DNA of 64,000 nt from an uncultured bacterium (lineage in GTDB: Bacteria; Babelota; Babeliae; Babelales; Babelaceae). Positions within the stretch are counted from its first letter, which is position 1, and each line of letters begins with the position of its first letter. Under the pieces are notes generated by a model, which saw only the letters and a program-made list of their open reading frames with translations, made no database searches and was not told where the DNA came from. A program made the position numbers and the translations under genes. Where the stretch lies: contig CAVRKK010000002.1 of assembly GCA_963722385.1 (NCBI GenBank), positions 864,001 to 928,000 of the forward strand, read 5' to 3'. Below are positions 16,106-29,541 of this stretch, one piece after another.

Positions 16106-18574
16106 CTATTGGCAAGATTCGCAATCACTATTGGCGAGATTACAAGAGCTTGTCGGTGCTTGATATTCTCGCTTTTGCGTAAAACCAAAGGTTTTTGCAT
16201 CGAGCGTTGATTTTTCCACTTGGGTAGCAGCAAGCGTACGTAGGTAATACATTGTTTTAAGCCCGCATCGCCAGGCGGTCATGTAAATGCTTTCTATTTT
16301 TTTGCCTGAAGCTCCTTTGAGAAATACGTTGTGTGATTGCGATTGGTCAATCCATTTACTGCGTGCTGCGGTCAGTCGAATGAGCCATTCAGGATCGAGC
16401 TCAAAAGCGGTTTTGTATTTTTCCTTAAGAAATGCCGGGATACGTTGAATATTTTGGAGATCACCATCATGGTACTTAATTTGATCAAGCAGGTTCTGAT
16501 CCCAAAGGCCTAATTTTTTTAAGTCATTGATCAAGAAGGTATTAACCACGGTAAATTCACCGCTCACATTGGCTTTAACGTAGATGTTTTTGAAAATAGG
16601 CTCGATGCTTGGGTAGCAGCCAGCTATCGTCGAAATAGTTGCGGTAGGGGCAATAGCCATTACGTTAGAATTACGCATCCCATACTGTGCAACCATCTTC
16701 TTAAGCGCTGACCAATCAAGCGTTGCTGTTCGTGAAACGTCAAGAGGGACCCCGCGCTCAGCCTCCAAGAGCTCAAGTGTATCAAAAGGGAAAATGCCGC
16801 GGTCCCATTTTGAGCCTTTATAGGAAGCGTACGTTCCTCGTTCTTTTGCCAGTGAAGCCGATGTTTGAATAGCATAATATGATATATGCTCCATAACCTC
16901 ATCGGCGCATTGCAAAGCTTCTGCAGAAGAAAACGGAATATCAAGCTCAAAGAGGGCATCTTGGAATCCCATGAGCCCCAAACCAAGTGGGCGGTTTTTC
17001 AAATTCGAAGCGTGGGCTTCTTTGGTTGGATAAAAATTTAAGTCGATTATGTTGTCGAGCATGTGAATTGCCGTCGCGACCGTCTCTTGCATAAGCGCGT
17101 AATCAAAAGTCCCCTGCTTAATATGCGCTTTAAGGTTAACGGAGCCGAGGTTGCAAACCGCTGTCTCTTGTGGTGACGTATTGAGCACAATTTCTGTACA
17201 GAGATTTGAGCAATGTACGACACCAACGTGATCTTGGGGTGACCTAATGTTGCATGGGTCTTTAAAGGTGATCCATGGATGGCCCGTTTCAAAGAGCCGC
17301 GTTAACATCTTTCGCCATAACTGTTGGGCAGGAACTGTTCTGGAGAGAGTAATATGCTCGGTGCTGACGAGCTGTTCATAGTGCTCGTAGGCAGTCTCAA
17401 AGGCTTTGCCATAAATATGGTGTAGGTCGGGTGTTTCGTGAGGTGAAAAGAGCGTCCAGTTACCGTTTGACATGACGCGCTTCATAAATAGATCAGGAAT
17501 CCAAACAGCCGTGTTCATGTCATGAGTACGTCGCCGTTCGTCGCCCGTATTACGCCTCAGATCCAGAAATTCCTCGATATCCAAATGCCAGGTTTCAAGG
17601 TAAGCGCATGACCCGCCGCGCCGAATGCCGGTACGCGTTATAGCAACAACAACATCATTAGCGATCTTAAGATAGGGTATGACTCCTTGGCTGCTTGCTT
17701 TAATACTTTTGATGAGAGCGCCTGATCCACGGATATTGGTCCAGTCAGTTCCCAGGCCGCCTGCCCATTTTGCAAGTTGGGCATTGTCACCAAGGCACTT
17801 AAAAATGTCGCTCAAGTCGTCTCCCACCGTGTTTAAATAACAAGAGCTCAACTGAGCATGCGTAAAACCAGAATGAAAGAGCGTGGGCGTTGAGGGAACA
17901 TAGCGTAGCGTCGAGATAATCGTATAAAAGTCGATAGCGCGAGCATTTTTATCGGACTCATTCAGAGAAAGGCCCATCGCTATACGCATCCAAAATGCTT
18001 GCGGTGTTTCGTGATGGATGCTTTTATTTTTCAAAAAATAGCGCTCATAGAGCGTATGCATGCCCATATAGTCAATAAGGTCATCACGCTCTAAGCATAA
18101 TTGTGTGGCCAAATAGGGTAGGTCGAACTCAGCAAGGCGCTTATCTAAGTTATCATGAGCGATGCCTCGCGCGATACCATCAATAAAGGCCTGACGATAG
18201 GCAGCTTCGCTCTGCTGCTCATTATCATATGATGTACCTATCACTTCGCGTAGGCACTTGGTGCGTAACAAGCGTGATGCCAGCTTGCTATAAGCAGGGT
18301 CACGTTCGATAAAAGTTGTCGCTGCCAGAATTAAGCCTTTTTCAATCTCAGCTGTTGTAATGCCATCAAAGATCGTGCGATAAAGCTCGCTCACCATCAA
18401 GGAGATATCAATTGCGGAGTCCAGCCCCTTGCATGCATTCTTAAGCACATTTACCACAACCAATTCATCGAATGCTTCACGCTGTCCATCTCGTTTAGTT
18501 ACCAGGTAACTCACTGCTGGCTGCCCCATTACACCATCAGCATAACTGATACCCGATATGCTGCTTTTATTCAT
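16106..18574 (-). CDS. nrdA: Ribonucleotide-diphosphate reductase alpha subunit with ATP cone
   Basis: VTKRDG ATP cone, PSTPTLFHSG, LSSCYL, SNLCTEI, CNLGSVNL, APTATIS, C-terminal CESCQ; start at GGAGG-N7-ATG 18574. Confidence 0.96.
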   Translation of the reverse strand: MNKSSISGISYADGVMGQPAVSYLVTKRDGQREAFDELVVVNVLKNACKGLDSAIDISLMVSELYRTIFDGITTAEIEKGLILAATTFIERDPAYSKLASRLLRTKCLREVIGTSYDNEQQSEAAYRQAFIDGIARGIAHDNLDKRLAEFDLPYLATQLCLERDDLIDYMGMHTLYERYFLKNKSIHHETPQAFWMRIAMGLSLNESDKNARAIDFYTIISTLRYVPSTPTLFHSGFTHAQLSSCYLNTVGDDLSDIFKCLGDNAQLAKWAGGLGTDWTNIRGSGALIKSIKASSQGVIPYLKIANDVVVAITRTGIRRGGSCAYLETWHLDIEEFLDLRRNTGDERRRTHDMNTAVWIPDLFMKRVMSNGNWTLFSPHETPDLHHIYGKAFETAYEHYEQLVSTEHITLSRTVPAQQLWRKMLTRLFETGHPWITFKDPCNIRSPQDHVGVVHCSNLCTEIVLNTSPQETAVCNLGSVNLKAHIKQGTFDYALMQETVATAIHMLDNIIDLNFYPTKEAHASNLKNRPLGLGLMGFQDALFELDIPFSSAEALQCADEVMEHISYYAIQTSASLAKERGTYASYKGSKWDRGIFPFDTLELLEAERGVPLDVSRTATLDWSALKKMVAQYGMRNSNVMAIAPTATISTIAGCYPSIEPIFKNIYVKANVSGEFTVVNTFLINDLKKLGLWDQNLLDQIKYHDGDLQNIQRIPAFLKEKYKTAFELDPEWLIRLTAARSKWIDQSQSHNVFLKGASGKKIESIYMTAWRCGLKTMYYLRTLAATQVEKSTLDAKTFGFTQKREYQAPTSSCNLANSDCESCQ

Positions 18575-18931
18575 GTTTTTCCTCCATAATTTTTTTGACA
18601 AAAAAGGGGGCTTGCGCGATTTTTTGCGCGCCCATTTATTTTCTAAATGAAATAACAGCATTCCGCCTTGTTGAATTAAATGTACCAGCTAAAGCCTAAA
18701 TGTTCAACAAAATTAAGAAACCAATTTTGCAAAAAATATTCTTAATTTTTTAGGCTCTTTGAATGCTGTATAATGCGTTTTGAAACTATTTTTTCTGATC
18801 GGCGACAGTGTGACATGCTCTTGTTTTTATTACCTCATAGAGCGGATACTATCCTAAAGCTTGCATGAGCTTTAAGGCTCGTGTTAATCTCCCATAATGA
18901 CAAGTAAACCTACCACCAAAAGGGGTGATCC

Positions 18932-20025: not shown

Positions 20026-21999
20026 TTAGAGCGAAGCTAATAATAAAGCGACCATCGACATGAGCTTAATCAATATATTGAGCGCAGGTCCTGAGGTATC
20101 TTTAAAAGGATCCCCAACCGTATCGCCAACAATTGCTGCTTTATGAGTATCTGAACCCTTGCCGCCAAAATGACCAGCTTCTATATACTTTTTCGCATTA
20201 TCCCAAGCGCCGCCGCCAGTTGCCATCATAAGCGCTAAGAGCACGCCAACAACCGTAGCACCGACTAACAGGCCGCCCAAAGCAAGCGGTCCAAGCAGAT
20301 ACCGAACGGTAACAGGTACAGCAACCGTAAGAAGACCAGGCAAGAGCATCTCGCGCAGCGAAGCCTTCGTGCTTATGGCTATACAGCGTGCGTAGTCAGG
20401 CAACGTTGTGCCCTCCATGATACCGGGGATCTCTTTAAACTGGCGGCGCACTTCCATGACCATGAGTAACGCGGCCTTGCCCACCGACCTCATGGTAAGT
20501 GCTGATATCCAGAATGGCATTGTACCGCCAATAAAAATACCAACAAGAACAATGGGGTTTAGTAAATTGAGCGTATCGATACCAGCCTTTAAACCATAAG
20601 CGGCAAATATACCAAGGGCAGCAAGCAATGCTGATCCGATGGCAAAACCTTTGCCGAGCGCTGCCGTTGTATTGCCCAAAGCATCGAGCTTGTCAGTAAT
20701 CTCGCGAACATTTTTTCCAAGACCTGCCATCTCCGCTATACCACCTGCGTTATCGGCAATGGGGCCATACCCATCAACGGTCATTAGAATGCCGACGGTT
20801 CCCAACATCGCAACCGCAGCAAGCGAAACGCCAAAGAGTTGCCCGCCATAGATATACGAAATGAGCACACCAAGAGCTAAGAGGATGACAGGAAGCACCG
20901 TTGATTCCATGCCAACCGACAAGCCGTAGATAATATTGGTTGCCGCCCCCGAGCGAGCGCTTTCAGCAACACGTATCATGGGTGTACTGCTGGTATAGTA
21001 TTCGGTAATAAAGCCAACAATAATGCCCGCGATACAGCCAACAATAATCGATATAAAGAGGCTAATATCGATGCCGGCATAGAAAAAGTAACCGTAGCTT
21101 AAGGCAAGTAATACGCCGAGCGCGCTTACGGTAGCGATGCGCAGCGACATTGCTGAGCTTGCCTTTGAGACGACGCCAAGTATGAGACCAATAAATGAAC
21201 CTATAAGCCCAAAGAGTGATATCATTAAAGGCAGTGTCATATAGGCTAAGCTACCCGGGCGATAAGCGAGGGCGAGAATGATAGTTGAGACCATGGCCCC
21301 AACATATGACTCATAAATATCTGCGCCCATGCCGGCGGTATCACCGACACAATCGCCAACATTATCAGCGATAACGGCAGGATTGCGAGGGTCATCTTCG
21401 GGAATACCTGCTTCTATTTTACCAACGAGATCGGCACCGACGTCGGCTGACTTTGTATAGATGCCGCCACCAACACGAGCAAAAAAGGCTACCAGGGAAG
21501 CGCCAAGAGCAAAGCTTGTAATAAGCAATTCGAAATCAGGCCGGCTGCTTGATATCATGACCAACAACGTAAGGCCGAGCAGGCCAATGCTGGCCACGGC
21601 AAATCCCATAGCACCGCCACCCAAGAGTGCCGTATAAAAAGCATGACGCTCGCCATGCTTTTGCGCTTCAAGGGTTGTGCGCACATTAGCATCCGTTGCA
21701 GCACACATACCAATATAGCCGGTTGTAAGCGACAAAATAGAGCCTATGGCAAAACAAGCGGCAGCCCATATATTAGCAAAAATTGAGAGCAGAATAACGC
21801 CTGCTATTACGACGAGCCCAATAACGCGATACTCTTCACGTAAAAAAGTCATGGCGCCTAAGCGTATAGCCTGCGCTATTGCTTCAGCTTTTTTGTTATC
21901 GACAGGTAACGATCTTACCCGCTTTATAAAGTACCATACCAACACCAATCCTATGACTGACGAAAGTATAATAGCAGTGTATATAGGGGTGATGAGCAT
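20026..21999 (-). CDS. hppA: Membrane-bound cation-translocating pyrophosphatase, K+-dependent type
   Basis: GGGIYTKSADVGADLVGKIEAGIPEDDPRNPAVIADNVGD, GNTTAA, GGAWDNAKK, GDTVGDPFKD. Confidence 0.96.
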   Translation of the reverse strand: MLITPIYTAIILSSVIGLVLVWYFIKRVRSLPVDNKKAEAIAQAIRLGAMTFLREEYRVIGLVVIAGVILLSIFANIWAAACFAIGSILSLTTGYIGMCAATDANVRTTLEAQKHGERHAFYTALLGGGAMGFAVASIGLLGLTLLVMISSSRPDFELLITSFALGASLVAFFARVGGGIYTKSADVGADLVGKIEAGIPEDDPRNPAVIADNVGDCVGDTAGMGADIYESYVGAMVSTIILALAYRPGSLAYMTLPLMISLFGLIGSFIGLILGVVSKASSAMSLRIATVSALGVLLALSYGYFFYAGIDISLFISIIVGCIAGIIVGFITEYYTSSTPMIRVAESARSGAATNIIYGLSVGMESTVLPVILLALGVLISYIYGGQLFGVSLAAVAMLGTVGILMTVDGYGPIADNAGGIAEMAGLGKNVREITDKLDALGNTTAALGKGFAIGSALLAALGIFAAYGLKAGIDTLNLLNPIVLVGIFIGGTMPFWISALTMRSVGKAALLMVMEVRRQFKEIPGIMEGTTLPDYARCIAISTKASLREMLLPGLLTVAVPVTVRYLLGPLALGGLLVGATVVGVLLALMMATGGGAWDNAKKYIEAGHFGGKGSDTHKAAIVGDTVGDPFKDTSGPALNILIKLMSMVALLLASL

Positions 22000-23048: not shown

Positions 23049-24089
23049 ATGAAACTAAAAAATCTCCATAAACTCACCCTGTTAGCGCTTATAAGTGGCT
23101 CGCTATTTTGTTCGCAAACGTCGACAAAATCACTGCTTGATAACGTAGCAAAGCCCTCCGCCAAGCCCGATCTGGCATTATCAGTTCTAAAAACCAATGG
23201 GTTTGTTCTAAAAAATGACTTTTTGAGGGAAATTAAAAATTTATTTAAGGCAACGACGTTTATTGAAACGGGAACGTATATTGGCCAAACGACGCTGGCA
23301 GCGAGCGCTGTCTTTGATGAGGTCTATACGGTTGAGTTATCAACGGCGCTCTATGACAGTTGTTCCCAGCTTTTTGAAGAGCATAAAAATATCCACCTCT
23401 ATCCAGGAACTTCACCAGAATTCTTGCAAACGATTCTCCCGCAGGTGAATGGGCAAGTAATTTTTTGGTTAGATGCTCACGATAGCTTAGGCATAACAGC
23501 TCGTGGTGACAAAGAGACACCTATTGTTGAAGAATTACGCGCTATCCAGGAATCACCGGTGAAAGATGGTATCATTTTGATTGATGACGTACGCCAATTT
23601 TATAAGACAGGATCTGACTATCCAACCTTTAGCGCTCTTTGCCAGCTGATAATTGATATTAATCCGAATTATAAATTGGCGGTGCTGGGCGACGTCTTGA
23701 TAGCGTTTCCTGAATCATGTAATATTACGGTATCACCGCTGGTGTGGGCGCTTACCTTGAGCCGACTCTATGATGAAAATAGCAATTTGGCTATCAATAT
23801 TGTGGCCGTTGATCGTATTATAGCGCATGCTCAGGGGCACGAGCTTGCAGGCCTTGAATGGATTGTGGCCTTGCCCGAAGAAGGACTTGGGCATGGTTCA
23901 TATCGCTGGTGGTACGGATTGTCTCGATTATATAAGGGAGATACCGCTCAAGGAATTGCTGCCTTACAAACTGCCTGGCTTGCGGAATCCAAAAAGCAAC
24001 GATTAGCGCTGTTAGTAGCTGATTGCCTCAAAGGGCTTAATAATGTTATTGGAACATCTTGTCTTCAACGAGAGGCCCTCTTAATTTAG
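23049..24089 (+). CDS. Signal-peptide-bearing SAM-dependent methyltransferase-like protein with helical C-terminus
   Basis: FIETGTYIGQT, VYTVELS, IFWLDAH, IILIDDVR motifs. Confidence 0.7.
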   Translation: MKLKNLHKLTLLALISGSLFCSQTSTKSLLDNVAKPSAKPDLALSVLKTNGFVLKNDFLREIKNLFKATTFIETGTYIGQTTLAASAVFDEVYTVELSTALYDSCSQLFEEHKNIHLYPGTSPEFLQTILPQVNGQVIFWLDAHDSLGITARGDKETPIVEELRAIQESPVKDGIILIDDVRQFYKTGSDYPTFSALCQLIIDINPNYKLAVLGDVLIAFPESCNITVSPLVWALTLSRLYDENSNLAINIVAVDRIIAHAQGHELAGLEWIVALPEEGLGHGSYRWWYGLSRLYKGDTAQGIAALQTAWLAESKKQRLALLVADCLKGLNNVIGTSCLQREALLI

Positions 24090-24118
24090 TAATTATAAAA
24101 AATAACAGGGAATTCAGC

Positions 24119-24772
24119 ATGAAAAGTACGATAAGGTTGCTTGTGTTTATAGGCTGCCTCTTTGCCAATGATGTCCTGGGCATGGAAAAGCAAAATTTGC
24201 GTACTATACGTGAATGTAAAACCTGTCTCGAGGATGCAAATCAAAAATACAATGCAAAGAAATTAAACAAAATGATTGCTATGCTTAAGACGCATATGCA
24301 AGAAAAGCTTTCTCCAAAAACGCTGAATAAGCTGCTTATTTTTCTTGCTCAGCAAATAAACACGTTAAGAACAGATGACGCAGTCGAAGATGCAGCGGAG
24401 CCGGTTGGCGATCCGTTCGATGATGATAAGAGCGATACGTCCTCGGATGATGATGGCGCCGCTTGGGGTGATTCTACGGGTGAGGGGAAAGCTTTTGTAT
24501 GTCTTTTTTTGATTACTTGCCTTGTCGTCTACTGGGTAGTTCAAGCAATTATGAGCAGCATGCATAACAATAGCGAGAAATCATTGGCTTTGCGTAGGCA
24601 AGAATACATTCCTCAGGCGGTAGATCATATGAGTGATTTGATGGGTGACATTATGGATAATATTCGCAACCAAGACTATCAGGTAGATGCTAACGCTCGA
24701 TCGGTCTTGAGATCGCTCGCTGAAACTAATCAAGTTATACGGTCTTTTGTTGGCGTGCAGAGCTTTATGTGA
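24119..24772 (+). CDS. Exported/membrane hypothetical protein
   Basis: Signal peptide followed by G-M-E-K; Asp-rich patch; one internal TM helix. Confidence 0.65.
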   Translation: MKSTIRLLVFIGCLFANDVLGMEKQNLRTIRECKTCLEDANQKYNAKKLNKMIAMLKTHMQEKLSPKTLNKLLIFLAQQINTLRTDDAVEDAAEPVGDPFDDDKSDTSSDDDGAAWGDSTGEGKAFVCLFLITCLVVYWVVQAIMSSMHNNSEKSLALRRQEYIPQAVDHMSDLMGDIMDNIRNQDYQVDANARSVLRSLAETNQVIRSFVGVQSFM

Positions 24773-24867
24773 TGTTGGCTCCAGCTAAAGGGGTACTTTC
24801 TGACGCGTGTAATTTTACGCGGTTATGCTATAGTTAAGCTATAAAGATGTAATAGCAAAGGACCAGC

Positions 24868-27129
24868 ATGAAACTCAGTATTGCACCCGAGATCCTGAGG
24901 GACTTCCCCGGGCTTACCATTGGTATCGTGGTTGCACATGGAAGCGACAATAGTCAGCAACACGAGGCGATTGAGCATTTGTTGCGTAGCCAAGAAGAAC
25001 TTATAACCAAAGCACTCACCAAAGAAAAGCTTGGTCAGCATCCGGCAATTCTGGTATGGCGTGCAGCCTATAAAAATTTTGGTGCACGGCCGAAAGACCA
25101 CCTCTCATCCGTTGAGAAGCTGGCCCAGCGTGTGCTAACTGGCCATCAGTTGCCCGCTATTAATTCTTTCGTTGATATCTATAATTATGTTTCGTTGAAA
25201 TACCTTCTGCCTGTTGGTGGGGAAGACCTTGATACCATCGAAGGTGATATCTCACTTGCCTATGCGGGCCCCCATGAGCCACCGGTACGCTTGCTGGGTG
25301 AATCAGAAGCTCGCCAACCAACACCAGGTGAAATTATATATAAGGACGCTAAGAGTGCGCTCTGCCGCCGCTGGAACTGGAAAGAGGCCGACCGGACCAA
25401 AATAATACCAACGACCAAGCACGCTATCTTTGTCGTTGAATTACTACCACCTGTCGATGCGCGTATCGTCAAAAGTGCGACGTATGAGCTGGCGGCTCTC
25501 ATTAAGCGCTTCTGCCAAGGGACAGTAAGCGTGGCTTTCTTAGATGAGCAACATCCCGAGGTTGTCCTCAAGCAGGATAATCACTATACCGAACTTCAGC
25601 ACCCATCAAAAGACTTTGCACTCGAGATCTCAGCTTATGCATTGCCTGAGGAAATGCATGAAGAGGAAGATATCTCTTCTGAACATGCCATACGTGCCGA
25701 AAAAGTACGCTTACTGCGCAAGGAAGGATATGAACCCTGGCCGGCAGGCAAGCCGGTAAGCGCTACCTGTGCAGAGATTGTTGCCGCTTTTGAGGCTGAT
25801 AATCAGAGTAAAGCTTATCAAGTAGCAGGGCGCGTTATGTCGCTGCGCATACATGGCAAAGCGGCATTTGCCGATATCCAAGATCGCTCGGGCAAGATCC
25901 AGGTACATATTAAGCAGGATGCCGTAGGCCATGAGCAGTTTTTGTTTTTTACAACGTTTATTGACGTTGGGGATATTCTGTGGTGCTCGGGCTCCACGTT
26001 CAGAACAAAAACGGGTCAGGTAACGCTTGAGGTTGAAAGCTTTAGCTTGCTCAGCAAGAGTCTCTATCCCTTGCCAGAAAAATTTCATGGGCTTACCCAT
26101 ATCGAGACCAAGTATCGCCAGCGGTACCTTGATTTGATCATTAATCCTACAACGCGAGCACGCTTTAGAAAGCGTACTGCCGTTATAAAATATATTCGTT
26201 GTTATTTAGATAAGCACGACTTTATTGAAGTGGAGACACCTATGCTGCATCCCATTGCTGGTGGTGCGGCAGCACGGCCCTTTATTACTCACCATAATGC
26301 TTTAAATACTGATTTTTACTTGCGTATCGCACCCGAATTGTACCTCAAGCGTTTGGTGATTGGCGGTATCGAACGCGTGTATGAGATTAATCGCAATTTC
26401 CGTAATGAGGGTGTCTCAACACGGCATAATCCCGAATTTACCATGCTTGAATTTTATATGGCATATCAGGATTATCATTTTATTATGGACTTTGTTGAAA
26501 ACCTGCTGCGGTCTTTGATACGAGCAGTATGCGGATCACTCCAGATACCGTACGAGCAGTATACACTCGACTTTGAGCAGCCCTTTTTGCGTATGCCAAT
26601 GCGCCAAGCTCTGATAACGTATGCTGGATTGAGCGAGCAGGAACTCACTCCTCGCATGCTTGATGCAACCCTTGCTGCGCATAAGCTTAAAGTTGACCAG
26701 CATGCTTCTGAGGGTGAAAAAATATATGCTCTTTTTGAGGAGCTTGCTGAGTCAAAGCTGATCCAGCCCATCTTTATTACTGATTTTCCTATTGAGGTCT
26801 CACCGCTGTCGAAACGAGATGTGCAAAATCCTATGCTTGCAGCGCGTTTTGAGCTCTTTATTGCTGGTATGGAGCTCAGTAATGGCTTCAATGAGCTTAA
26901 TGATCCCTACGACCAGGCTGAGCGATTTAAAGAGCAAGTAGCTGCTCATGCTCGAGGAAATAAGGAGGCGCACCAGTATGACAGCGACTATGTCCATGCG
27001 CTTGAGTATGCTCTTCCTCCTACGGTGGGCGTTGGTATCGGTATCGATCGGCTGGTTATGCTGTTGACCAATACCCCCTCTATTAAAGAAGTCATTCTGT
27101 TTCCAACGCTTAAGCGCAAAGAAGGCTAA
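24868..27129 (+). CDS. lysS: Lysine--tRNA ligase (class II) fused to an N-terminal B3/4 domain
   Basis: C-terminal ~490 aa: YRQRYLDL, EVETPML, LRIAPELYLKRL, FRNEG, HNPEFTMLE, GIGIDRL; N-terminal ~230 aa: WRAAYKNFG, SSVEKL, INSFVDIYNYVSL, PVGGEDLD, CRRWNWKE. Confidence 0.95.
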   Translation: MKLSIAPEILRDFPGLTIGIVVAHGSDNSQQHEAIEHLLRSQEELITKALTKEKLGQHPAILVWRAAYKNFGARPKDHLSSVEKLAQRVLTGHQLPAINSFVDIYNYVSLKYLLPVGGEDLDTIEGDISLAYAGPHEPPVRLLGESEARQPTPGEIIYKDAKSALCRRWNWKEADRTKIIPTTKHAIFVVELLPPVDARIVKSATYELAALIKRFCQGTVSVAFLDEQHPEVVLKQDNHYTELQHPSKDFALEISAYALPEEMHEEEDISSEHAIRAEKVRLLRKEGYEPWPAGKPVSATCAEIVAAFEADNQSKAYQVAGRVMSLRIHGKAAFADIQDRSGKIQVHIKQDAVGHEQFLFFTTFIDVGDILWCSGSTFRTKTGQVTLEVESFSLLSKSLYPLPEKFHGLTHIETKYRQRYLDLIINPTTRARFRKRTAVIKYIRCYLDKHDFIEVETPMLHPIAGGAAARPFITHHNALNTDFYLRIAPELYLKRLVIGGIERVYEINRNFRNEGVSTRHNPEFTMLEFYMAYQDYHFIMDFVENLLRSLIRAVCGSLQIPYEQYTLDFEQPFLRMPMRQALITYAGLSEQELTPRMLDATLAAHKLKVDQHASEGEKIYALFEELAESKLIQPIFITDFPIEVSPLSKRDVQNPMLAARFELFIAGMELSNGFNELNDPYDQAERFKEQVAAHARGNKEAHQYDSDYVHALEYALPPTVGVGIGIDRLVMLLTNTPSIKEVILFPTLKRKEG

Positions 27130-27130
27130 G

Positions 27131-28855
27131 ATGCTTCAGGGAGAAAAATACCGTTGGCTTCTAGCGCAACCCGATGAACAGCTTATACGTGCGCTTGCTT
27201 TACGCTTTAACCTATCTATACCTGTTATACAGACGCTTATTAATCGCCGCTTAACGACGGTGGAAGTTATCGAGCGATTCCTCTTTAGCAGCAAAGAAAA
27301 AGATGTCGGCCATGCGGGCAGGCTTAAGGACGCCGAAAAGGCGGTTGATCGTATTATGTATGCGATTAAGTATAAAGAAAAAATGTTGATTTGTGGCGAT
27401 TATGATGTTGATGGTATCACTTCATCGGCGCTCATTTTGAGCTGCCTTTTGCCCTTAGATGCCTCGGTGAACTTTTTCTTGCCCAACCGAGTACGCGATG
27501 GCTACGGTTTATCGACAACAACAGTTGAGCGTGCTGCGCGCAATGGTTATCGCGTAATCATTACCGTTGACAATGGTATCACCGCATTTGAGCCTGCTCT
27601 CGTTGCTAAGCAGCATGGTATAGACCTTATTATTACCGATCATCATCGGCCACATGAGCATGTTCCTGATGCATTTGCCATTGTTAATCCCCATCAGGAA
27701 GACTGCCCCTACCCATTTAAGGGCTTTGCAGGGGTTGGCGTTAGCTTTAAGCTCATGTCGCTTCTCTACGAGCGGCTGAACCTTCCACTACCAGCTCAAG
27801 TCTATGAGCTTTTGCTGTTGGGTACCGTAGCTGATGTTGTACCTTTGGTTGAGGAAAATCGATTTTGGGTTCGCTATGGCCTCCAGCACATCAGAAAGCA
27901 GGAGAGTACGGCATTACAGGTGCTTAAGAAAAATGCGCGCGTTACCAGGCCGGTGATAACTTCGCAGGATATTGGATTTTTTATTACGCCACAGATTAAT
28001 GCGCTCGGCAGACTTGACGATCCTCGGGATGGCGTTAAATTTCTTATGAGTATTGATGCTGCTGAAGTTGAGCGAATTGGTGCCGTCTTGAGCAGTTTCA
28101 ACGAAGCGCGGAAGGCAGTTGAGCGCTCTATCCTTGACGATATCGAGCGTGAGCTCGCTGACATAGACTTTTCGAAAGAGCGCGTTATTGTGGCTTTCAG
28201 TAAACGATGGCCTACGGGGGTTATAGGCCTAGCCGCCTCTCGCTTGGTGAGTGCCTATCATCGGCCTGCTTTCTTGTTTCATATTACGGCGGAAGGAATT
28301 GCTAAAGGCTCGTGTCGGTCAATCCCAGCATTTAATATTTTTAACGCGCTGACTACTCTACGTGATATGTTAATTACCTTTGGCGGCCATGCGGTGGCCG
28401 CAGGTCTTTCTTTACCAGCGGTACGCTTGCCAGAGTTTAAAGCACGGCTCGAAGAGCTCGTTGATAAAGCATTAACTCCCGATGACCTGTTGCCGACCTT
28501 GCATATTGATGCAGAACTGCCATTACGTGAAGCTAACAGCAAGCTTATGGCGGACTTAGCGTATTTAGAGCCGTTTGGTTGTGAAAATAGTGTACCTCTC
28601 TTTTACGTACGCCAGGTGACGTTATTGGGTCAGCCACAGCTTCTTAAAGAAGCCCATGTAAAATGCACCGTGTTTTCTGATGGTATTGCCAAGCCGGTTA
28701 TTTTTTTCAACAGGCCAGAGCTGTATAAAAAATTACAGGAGGCAGAAGCGATGAGTTGTAGCTTGGTTGTGCACGCACTTGAAAATCATTGGAACAATGA
28801 GACTCGCATTGAATTACAGGGCATTGATATTGTGCTCGGTGAGGAAGCATTATGA
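27131..28855 (+). CDS. recJ: Single-stranded-DNA exonuclease RecJ
   Basis: GDYDVDG, TVDNG, TDHH, GTVADV, INALGRL, GGHAVAAG. Confidence 0.95.
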   Translation: MLQGEKYRWLLAQPDEQLIRALALRFNLSIPVIQTLINRRLTTVEVIERFLFSSKEKDVGHAGRLKDAEKAVDRIMYAIKYKEKMLICGDYDVDGITSSALILSCLLPLDASVNFFLPNRVRDGYGLSTTTVERAARNGYRVIITVDNGITAFEPALVAKQHGIDLIITDHHRPHEHVPDAFAIVNPHQEDCPYPFKGFAGVGVSFKLMSLLYERLNLPLPAQVYELLLLGTVADVVPLVEENRFWVRYGLQHIRKQESTALQVLKKNARVTRPVITSQDIGFFITPQINALGRLDDPRDGVKFLMSIDAAEVERIGAVLSSFNEARKAVERSILDDIERELADIDFSKERVIVAFSKRWPTGVIGLAASRLVSAYHRPAFLFHITAEGIAKGSCRSIPAFNIFNALTTLRDMLITFGGHAVAAGLSLPAVRLPEFKARLEELVDKALTPDDLLPTLHIDAELPLREANSKLMADLAYLEPFGCENSVPLFYVRQVTLLGQPQLLKEAHVKCTVFSDGIAKPVIFFNRPELYKKLQEAEAMSCSLVVHALENHWNNETRIELQGIDIVLGEEAL

Positions 28856-29541
28856 TTATCACCATTGATGGCCCTGCGGCGAGCGGCAAGTCTTCGGCGG
28901 CACGCTTATTGGCAAAAGATTTGGGCTATAAGTATCTTGGTACCGGGTTACTCTATCGTGCACTTGCGTATCTTTTAGTAAAGCATTACGGGTACACGGT
29001 TAAAACTATTGTACACCCAACGTCGATCGATATTACGCACGTTTTGGATGGGCATGTTTTCCAGTATTGCCATGTTGGTGATGTGTCAAGCATTGAATAT
29101 AAGGGTGTTGATATTACGGCGCACCTCAAGGCACCTGATGTTGATGAATGGTCGTCGCTCATTAGCCAAAATACTCAGGTACGTATCATGATCGTGAGCT
29201 TGGCAAGAAAATGCGCAGAAGGTAAGAACATGATTGCTGAGGGACGTGACTGCGGCTCGGTGATTTTTCCGCAAGCTGCATACAAATTCTTTCTCACCGC
29301 GTCGCTCGACGTTCGTGCCGAACGGTGGCAAGAGAGCCAGCGGCATCATGGAATTGTTGTGCCATTTGATCAAGCGCGTGCTTTTATCGTAGAGCGAGAT
29401 GAGCGTGATATGACACGTAAAGTCGATCCGCTCGTTATTCCCCCGGGGGCTAAAGTAATCGATAACTCAACGTTAAGCCTTGAGCAGACGGTAGAGCTGC
29501 TTAAGAGCTTTATTGTGCAAAAGCATAATCATAACCACTAG
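28852..29541 (+). CDS. cmk: Cytidylate kinase
   Basis: IDGPAASGKSS, EGRDCGSVIFP, ERDERD. Confidence 0.93.
   Translation: MIITIDGPAASGKSSAARLLAKDLGYKYLGTGLLYRALAYLLVKHYGYTVKTIVHPTSIDITHVLDGHVFQYCHVGDVSSIEYKGVDITAHLKAPDVDEWSSLISQNTQVRIMIVSLARKCAEGKNMIAEGRDCGSVIFPQAAYKFFLTASLDVRAERWQESQRHHGIVVPFDQARAFIVERDERDMTRKVDPLVIPPGAKVIDNSTLSLEQTVELLKSFIVQKHNHNH

Follow-up and report, generated by a model that had tools for sequence, protein, structure and literature searches.

A CtdA-type B3/4 domain fused in frame to class II lysyl-tRNA synthetase in an uncultured member of the Babelota

Why would a lysyl-tRNA synthetase (LysRS) carry a domain from a family of editing proteins? Reviews divide the aminoacyl-tRNA synthetases by the possession of an editing domain and place LysRS in the group without one, though it is known to mischarge tRNA-Lys; in PMC11415595 and PMC7373986, LysRS is listed with pre-transfer editing only and not among the editing-domain synthetases. 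The question is raised by a 64,000-nucleotide stretch of contig CAVRKK010000002.1 (positions 864,001 to 928,000 of the forward strand; hereafter the window), in which a single stop-free reading frame encodes a protein (P0001) consisting of a CtdA-type B3/4 domain followed by a class II LysRS (Table 1).

The fusion gene and its setting

A sequence-only reading of the window had described one uninterrupted 753-aa frame with standalone-type B3/4 motifs, an acidic linker and a complete class II LysRS. The frame contains no stop codon, Pfam B3_4 matches aa 64-216 (E 2.9e-25), and all of the motifs quoted in that reading are present: INSFVDIYNYVSL at aa 98-110, PVGGEDLD at aa 115-122 and CRRWNWKE at aa 166-173. 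The LysRS is likewise complete, with an OB fold and a tRNA-synt_2 domain, and the protein scores 603 bits against NCBIfam lysS_bact (cut-off 427.6). It resembles other class II LysRS (TIGR00499) in passing the curated cut-off, in its OB and catalytic domains, in its lysine pocket and in its lysS-recJ-cmk locus, and differs from them by the extra N-terminal 270 aa. The ten motif positions of the lysine/ATP pocket, whose labels we take to follow E. coli LysRS numbering, show no difference between 22 fused and 59 unfused relatives; the idea that the fused enzymes have a relaxed lysine pocket was rejected, since this comparison revealed none.

Table 1. Features of the fusion gene and its surroundings (window coordinates)
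Feature	Position	Strand	Basis
Likely promoter and ribosome-binding site	24826..24862	+	read by eye
lysS, CtdA-LysRS fusion, 753 aa	24868..27129	+	ORF; lysS_bact cut-off passed; tblastn
CtdA-1-type B3/4 domain, aa 1-235, full standalone length	24868..25572	+	Pfam, PDB sequence matches, AlphaFold, Foldseek
Catalytic segment Y105-N106...S109...G117-G118-E119	25180..25224	+	alignment to 9mkl, 9f7e; published mutants
Pocket segment C166-R-R-W-N-W-K-E173...V189-V-E191	25363..25440	+	alignment to CtdA C166, Q173, I189, E191
Linker, aa 236-270: short hairpin, then poorly conserved acidic stretch, predicted flexible	25573..25677	+	pLDDT, identity between relatives
Anticodon-binding OB fold, aa 318-395	25819..26052	+	Pfam PF01336
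Class II catalytic domain, aa 413-748, canonical lysine pocket	26104..27111	+	Pfam PF00152
recJ and cmk, closely coupled downstream of lysS	27131..29541	+	Pfam, synteny table

The linker is about 30-36 aa long. Between pairs of relatives it is 18-63% identical with dN/dS of 0.2-1.4, pLDDT falls below 50 at aa 260-269, and the full-length monomer model (pTM 0.47) shows no fixed domain arrangement and a low-confidence linker. It has 10 Asp/Glu in 36 aa. Unfused LysRS of relatives also begin with acidic, His-rich N-termini, which makes it look more like an inherited LysRS N-terminus than like a special linker.

The fusion is not an artifact: its junction is crossed by a short-read contig, and it is found in 22 of 261 genomes of the phylum. 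The contig, from run X1, matches 24700-25919 without a single difference or gap, a span that reaches from the domain through the linker into the beginning of LysRS; X1, possibly the source sample of the assembly, was the best of three runs compared, all soil metagenomes of one study. The same architecture was found in 30 further protein clusters (44-51% identity), and the 22 genomes with this junction belong to five families. An assembly chimera, or a lost stop codon joining two neighboring genes, is refuted by these observations, to which can be added that none of 71 standalone loci has lysS, argS or metS nearby (up to 3.5 kb on each side); its remaining probability is negligible.

The genome (1.6 Mb, 93% complete) contains one class II LysRS and one CtdA-like domain by tblastn, both in the lysS fusion; no class I LysRS was found in it above the cut-off, and the fusion is the only LysRS found. 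The ArgRS of the same genome (G000) is a separate, unfused frame of 550 aa, and the second B3/4 domain of the genome lies within a 775-aa frame of PheT length. Fused proteins appear in databases under the plain name 'lysyl-tRNA synthetase'.

Upstream of the gene, an extended -10-like TGnTATAGT (24826-24834) and an AAAGGA (24857-24862) were read by eye as a likely promoter and ribosome-binding site; TATA(C/G)T boxes of similar kind precede many lysS genes, fused and unfused. The downstream genes recJ and cmk are the usual lysS neighbors in the group irrespective of fusion. Ahead of lysS, in the place that a superoxide dismutase gene takes in many relatives, lie two ORFs of 346 and 237 aa without a Pfam match (23049-24772, plus strand), the first of which is methyltransferase-like by eye. 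A membrane-bound pyrophosphatase (20026-21999) and a ribonucleotide reductase large subunit (16106-18661), both on the minus strand and recognized by eye, are ordinary for the group.

Relationship of the N-terminal domain to CtdA

CtdA is a deacylase that hydrolyzes canavanyl-tRNA-Arg and spares arginyl-tRNA-Arg. When the N-terminal 241 aa were compared with PDB sequences, the only matches were the CtdA structures 9mkl (E 1.9e-26) and 9f7e (E 1e-25). The AlphaFold model of the domain (pLDDT 96, pTM 0.92) contains the CtdA-specific helical insert and was matched to CtdA by Foldseek with TM 0.81-0.85 and 25-29% identity (TM 0.84-0.85 to 9mkl), compared to TM 0.61 or less and 9-16% identity for PheRS-beta. 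Both the sequence matches and the TM scores thus uphold the proposed relationship to CtdA. The domain shares with the B3/B4 region of PheRS-beta the fold family (Pfam PF03483) and a conserved Asn, but the structural match is far weaker and the domain is not part of a B1-B8 subunit.

The likeness to CtdA, specifically CtdA-1 (9mkl, 9f7e), comprises the fold, the helical insert, the length and the catalytic and pocket residues Y104, N105, S108, G116, E118, C166, Q/E173 and E191. In the alignment, key CtdA positions are occupied in P0001 by Y105, N106, S109, G117, E119, C166, E173, V189 and E191, the catalytic segment corresponding to Y104, N105, S108, G116, G117 and E118 of CtdA. Mutants have shown that N105, G116 and Q173 are required for CtdA (PMC12449066), as are Y104, N105, E118 and E191 (bioRxiv 2024.11.30.626143). 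All of the catalytic residues are kept in P0001, with Q173 present as a tolerated Glu; the active C. perfringens CtdA also has Glu at 173 (PMC12449066). C166, which discriminates the CtdA-1 clade from CtdA-2 and tunes specificity (PMC12449066), is present, and the PheRS pocket positions equivalent to His265 and Gly318 are G117 and E173, as in CtdA. Six of the nine positions of the basic ring, mapped from the PDB sequence alignment, are basic in P0001. The domain differs from CtdA in having Val for I189, Tyr for W158 and Ile for W187, and non-basic residues at 3/9 ring positions. In addition, described CtdA proteins are standalone, often with guanidine riboswitches or beside canavanine genes, whereas P0001 is fused in frame to LysRS behind a lysS promoter.

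The full set of seven key positions survives in 28 of the 40 fused clusters, in 15 of the 22 genome fusions and in 26 of 27 standalone kin (named proteins picked from 71 loci); among the 40 fused clusters, Y105 is retained in 39, N106 in 38 and E191 in 39. The E119/E173/E191 triad is E-E-E in P0001, in 27/27 standalone kin and in 11/15 ArgRS-fused copies, so nothing about the P0001 domain is LysRS-specific. A change of E119 to Asp was rejected as a LysRS signature, since Asp also occurs in 4 standalone copies. The domain is under purifying selection in relatives: in 6/9 pairs, which are not independent, its dN/dS is 0.057-0.124, compared to 0.05-0.13 for the core, and 3/9 pairs, including G000-G001, are saturated. 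In the nearest relative (G001, locus L040) the domain carries E119Q and E173D on a branch three times longer than that of P0001, and it may be undergoing either decay or retuning.

Distribution of CtdA-type domains on synthetases

A profile search found the domain in 28 of the 261 genomes of the phylum; the other 233 were without a copy. Twenty-two of the 28 copies stand in frame before LysRS (that of G185 with a frameshift later in the core), five are standalone (the copy of G015 being short), and one, in G219, is probably a fusion cut by the contig end. None of the 28 genomes contains both a fused and a standalone copy, a number too small to test, and within the phylum no copy was found on a synthetase other than LysRS. 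Two weak long matches of the first profile search, one of them PheT, were lost at a stricter search. The same fusion is found in a Candidatus Babeliales sequence (L120) with 57% domain identity. Among proteins without a fusion, the closest kin (48-54% identity) are standalone ones from Anaerolineales, Acidobacteriota, CPR and DPANN.

Several comparisons bear on how the fusion came to be so unevenly spread. Many genomes of both kinds, fused and unfused, keep lysS in its customary position close to sod, recJ and cmk. A tree was built from 81 cores, comprising 22 fused ones and 59 unfused ones selected out of 251 matches; its close clades agree with genus codes, but the fused label is scattered, with 17 changes compared to a shuffled mean of 19.4. 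Between fused G105 and unfused G033 the locus shares 79-88% DNA identity, yet some 800 bp, spanning the domain and promoter, differ. The domains of G125 and G048 are sisters (support 100/100, 74% identity), and sister cores are rejected for this pair, which was picked after the domain tree had been seen (p-AU 1e-42); at least one transfer of the domain without its partner has thus taken place. The correlation between domain and core distances is only moderate (Mantel r 0.55), the domains of G150 and G217 belong to lineages other than the main clade, and P0032 has a C-terminal domain copy on a core that falls inside the phylum group. To judge from these sequence comparisons, the domain is an accessory module whose presence at the 5' end of lysS appears to have changed through gain, loss and swapping. 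Upstream sequence was uninformative as a guide to gain versus loss. A single origin of the main fused clade is supported in the domain tree (98/94) and, for 9 rows, in a quick tree (93), but is without support in a 24-row tree. In a separate pair, G107 and G108 (L045 and L049), the domain dS is 0.09 and the core dS 0.49, and a recent exchange of the 5' part of lysS is likely from these values.

Beyond the phylum, the domain family is found on the synthetases of CPR and DPANN. Fifty-six long proteins, found among 7,999 scored candidates, comprised 42 class II LysRS, 3 class I LysRS, 8 ArgRS, 1 MetRS, 1 ankyrin and 1 EamA protein; such partner surveys favor synthetases because the profile was seeded with synthetase fusions. 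Matches were found in 20/401 CPR genomes, with 17 of 22 matches in long frames (6 ArgRS, 4 class II LysRS, 4 class I LysRS, 1 MetRS, 1 TyrRS and 1 ProRS). In the Iainarchaeum phylum, 49/201 genomes had matches; the 30 strong ones included 16 class I LysRS and 1 class II LysRS among 17 checked long frames, together with 3 other long and 10 short matches, and all 20 weaker long matches that were fetched were MetRS-like by BLAST, 12 of them confirmed by NCBIfam. The domain is N-terminal in P0001 and C-terminal in other LysRS.

In a quick 91-row tree, domain clades track the partner, with 11/11 MetRS rows in one clade (support 98). Two clades span both LysRS classes: a CPR clade on 4 class I and 4 class II enzymes (support 84) and an archaeal clade with 13 class I and 2 class II rows (support 93). 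None of the domain trees contains a characterized CtdA sequence. Kin share both domain and partner, so the partner clustering is not independent proof of co-evolution. At 119/173/191, MetRS-fused copies have the triad H/Y-Q-Q, the CPR lysine clade has F/Y-D-D/E, and G217, P0061 and P0062 have Y-D-D.

Several architectures stand apart from these. A distinct B3/4 subfamily, in which H/Y119 and Q191 replace both acidic pocket residues, lies C-terminal on MetRS of archaea and CPR (L247-L266, L281, P0038) and is a candidate MetRS editing domain. In a 1044-aa frame (L284:2009-5140, minus strand), an archaeal class I LysRS is followed by two editors, the first a CtdA-type domain and the second AlaXM-like. 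CPR genomes have B3/4 N-terminal on TyrRS (L273:2111-4117, plus strand) and on ProRS (L283:2226-4364, plus strand). Three CPR class II LysRS reach about 950 aa (L279:1098-3941, minus; L269:941-3793, plus; L271:609-3467, plus); one has an HD domain between the core and B3/4, and two continue for some 200 residues beyond B3/4, a part that gave no Pfam match in the single protein scanned. A CtdA-like domain also occurs on ankyrin repeats (P0060, in the same domain clade as G217, P0061 and P0062) and, in part, on an EamA transporter (P0063).

Possible roles of the fused domain

There are several potential explanations for a CtdA-type domain on LysRS. Judged from its sequence and predicted structure, the domain is likely an active aminoacyl-tRNA deacylase, and the explanation we prefer, to which we give an even balance of belief and doubt, is that it serves as a tethered editor of mischarged tRNA-Lys, Arg-type errors being its most likely targets. 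LysRS would occasionally charge tRNA-Lys with a near-cognate basic amino acid; Arg is the documented mischarging case for E. coli LysRS, and canavanine or another imported analogue is possible. The domain, on a flexible tether without a fixed dock, would use its ring of basic residues to capture the charged CCA end; the side chain would enter the acidic pocket (E119, E173, E191; C166), and Y105 and N106 would position the water that cuts the ester. Lys-tRNA would be spared through poor fit or EF-Tu shielding. CtdA hydrolyzes Arg-tRNA-Arg above 1 uM, and ArgRS and EF-Tu shield Arg-tRNA-Arg (PMC12449066); tethering would raise the local concentration and could make this weak Arg-ester activity useful, so a tethered CtdA would be well placed to remove Arg-type errors from tRNA-Lys. 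A precedent for such action in cis is ProXp-ala on the ProRS of protists (PMC11295145), where a freestanding deacylase is N-terminal on the synthetase whose errors it corrects; it differs in its INS-superfamily fold, its amino acid, its eukaryotic hosts and its demonstrated activity. Several findings count against a tethered editor: the pocket triad shared with standalone and ArgRS-fused copies, the lack of a fixed domain arrangement in the full-length model, the attachment of the domain to either end of LysRS, the additional AlaX-type editor on L284, the 233 genomes of the phylum that have no copy and the altered key positions in part of the fusions.

The sequence-only reading had proposed editing against Lys analogues. 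This is not specifically supported, because the triad is common to the standalone kin and most ArgRS-fused copies, and it fits Arg- or canavanine-like side chains. The same reading had linked the fusion to the import of host amino acids. Import is plausible, for a search of the 93%-complete genome gave no LysA-type decarboxylase, and TM6 genomes are described as lacking complete amino-acid pathways and thought to be host-associated (PMC4776705). The bacterium itself is likely protist-dwelling. As a cause, however, import is weak, given that the fusion occurs in at most 23/261 genomes of the phylum.

It is also conceivable, though rather unlikely in our judgment, that the domain is an ordinary CtdA cleaving canavanyl-tRNA-Arg, or a similar ArgRS product, in trans, with lysS as a safe, constantly expressed carrier in a small genome. 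Its weight comes from a pocket that has not changed, from the loose tether and from the ability of LysRS to bear editors unrelated to it: the AlaX-type editor of L284 indicates that a LysRS may simply be the vehicle for an editor that serves a different tRNA. The domain also has its full standalone length and its closest kin outside the fusions stand alone; in five genomes of the phylum a standalone copy takes the place of the fusion (with none of 28 having both), and G000 has an unfused ArgRS. CtdA itself needs no synthetase (PMC10018355), and the three runs that cover much of the gene all come from soil metagenomes of a single study. A mere carrier, however, leaves unexplained the repeated choice of lysS over other housekeeping genes in one order, which was made by three domain lineages within the phylum (the main clade, G150 and G217), with P0032 adding a C-terminal fusion; nor does it fit the two domain clades that keep LysRS across class I/class II replacement. 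These same observations are the main reasons for our standing on the tethered editor. A guanidine riboswitch, which many CtdA genes have (PMC10018355), was near 0/19 standalone kin examined, and canavanine exposure inside protists is not established. The genes around standalone kin gave no informative conserved cluster, most of the frames there being spurious high-GC ones.

That the domain edits non-protein basic amino acids broadly, on both tRNA-Lys and tRNA-Arg, with the fusion merely biasing it to tRNA-Lys, we regard as improbable. Copies on LysRS and ArgRS have the same pocket, the tRNA-recognition mode of CtdA is not established in the literature, the basic ring has been proposed to bind the universal CCA end (bioRxiv 2024.11.30.626143), and other freestanding editors have a wide tRNA range (PMC11295145). 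Against this, homoarginyl-tRNA-Arg is not edited by CtdA (PMC10018355) and meta-Tyr toxicity is not rescued by it (PMC12449066), which indicates a narrow side-chain range. A non-catalytic domain, either a tRNA-binding aid or a slowly decaying passenger, would suit the partly kept basic ring (6/9), the many losses among close relatives and the pocket changes in 7/22 genome fusions; it is very improbable in view of the buried catalytic residues kept in P0001 and most relatives, and of a domain dN/dS close to that of the essential core.

No description of a CtdA-LysRS fusion was found in the open literature searched, subscription papers being outside its scope, and the words 'fused' and 'fusion' are absent from the main text of three CtdA papers (PMC10018355, PMC12449066, bioRxiv 2024.11.30.626143). 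The supplement of PMC12449066 has an Alteribacillus 'Lysyl-tRNA synthetase, class 2' row among its CtdA hits, uncommented in the text, which is either a fusion or a mislabel. Mukai 2017 was rejected as a prior description, its accessible part covering B2-domain fusions only. A freestanding editor fused to a synthetase is of an already known kind (ProXp-ala on ProRS); new here are the N-terminal form on class II LysRS and the evidence for an exchangeable cassette on an essential gene. The fusion makes post-transfer correction of LysRS errors testable in one soluble protein, with the near-identical lysS pair of G105 (fused) and G033 (unfused) as a natural control, and it bears on the role of the CtdA family in organisms without clear canavanine exposure, a question raised in PMC12449066.

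More tentatively, and with rather more doubt than belief, the CtdA fold may serve symbionts with small genomes as an add-on proofreading cassette that is joined by recombination to the ends of essential synthetase genes, spreads sideways between lineages without its partner and is then retuned to the partner's amino acid. If so, P0001 would represent an early stage with its pocket unchanged, and the F/Y-D-D lineages fused to LysRS a retuned late stage. Post-transfer editing would then extend to ArgRS, MetRS, TyrRS and the two LysRS classes, enzymes not described so far with an editing domain.
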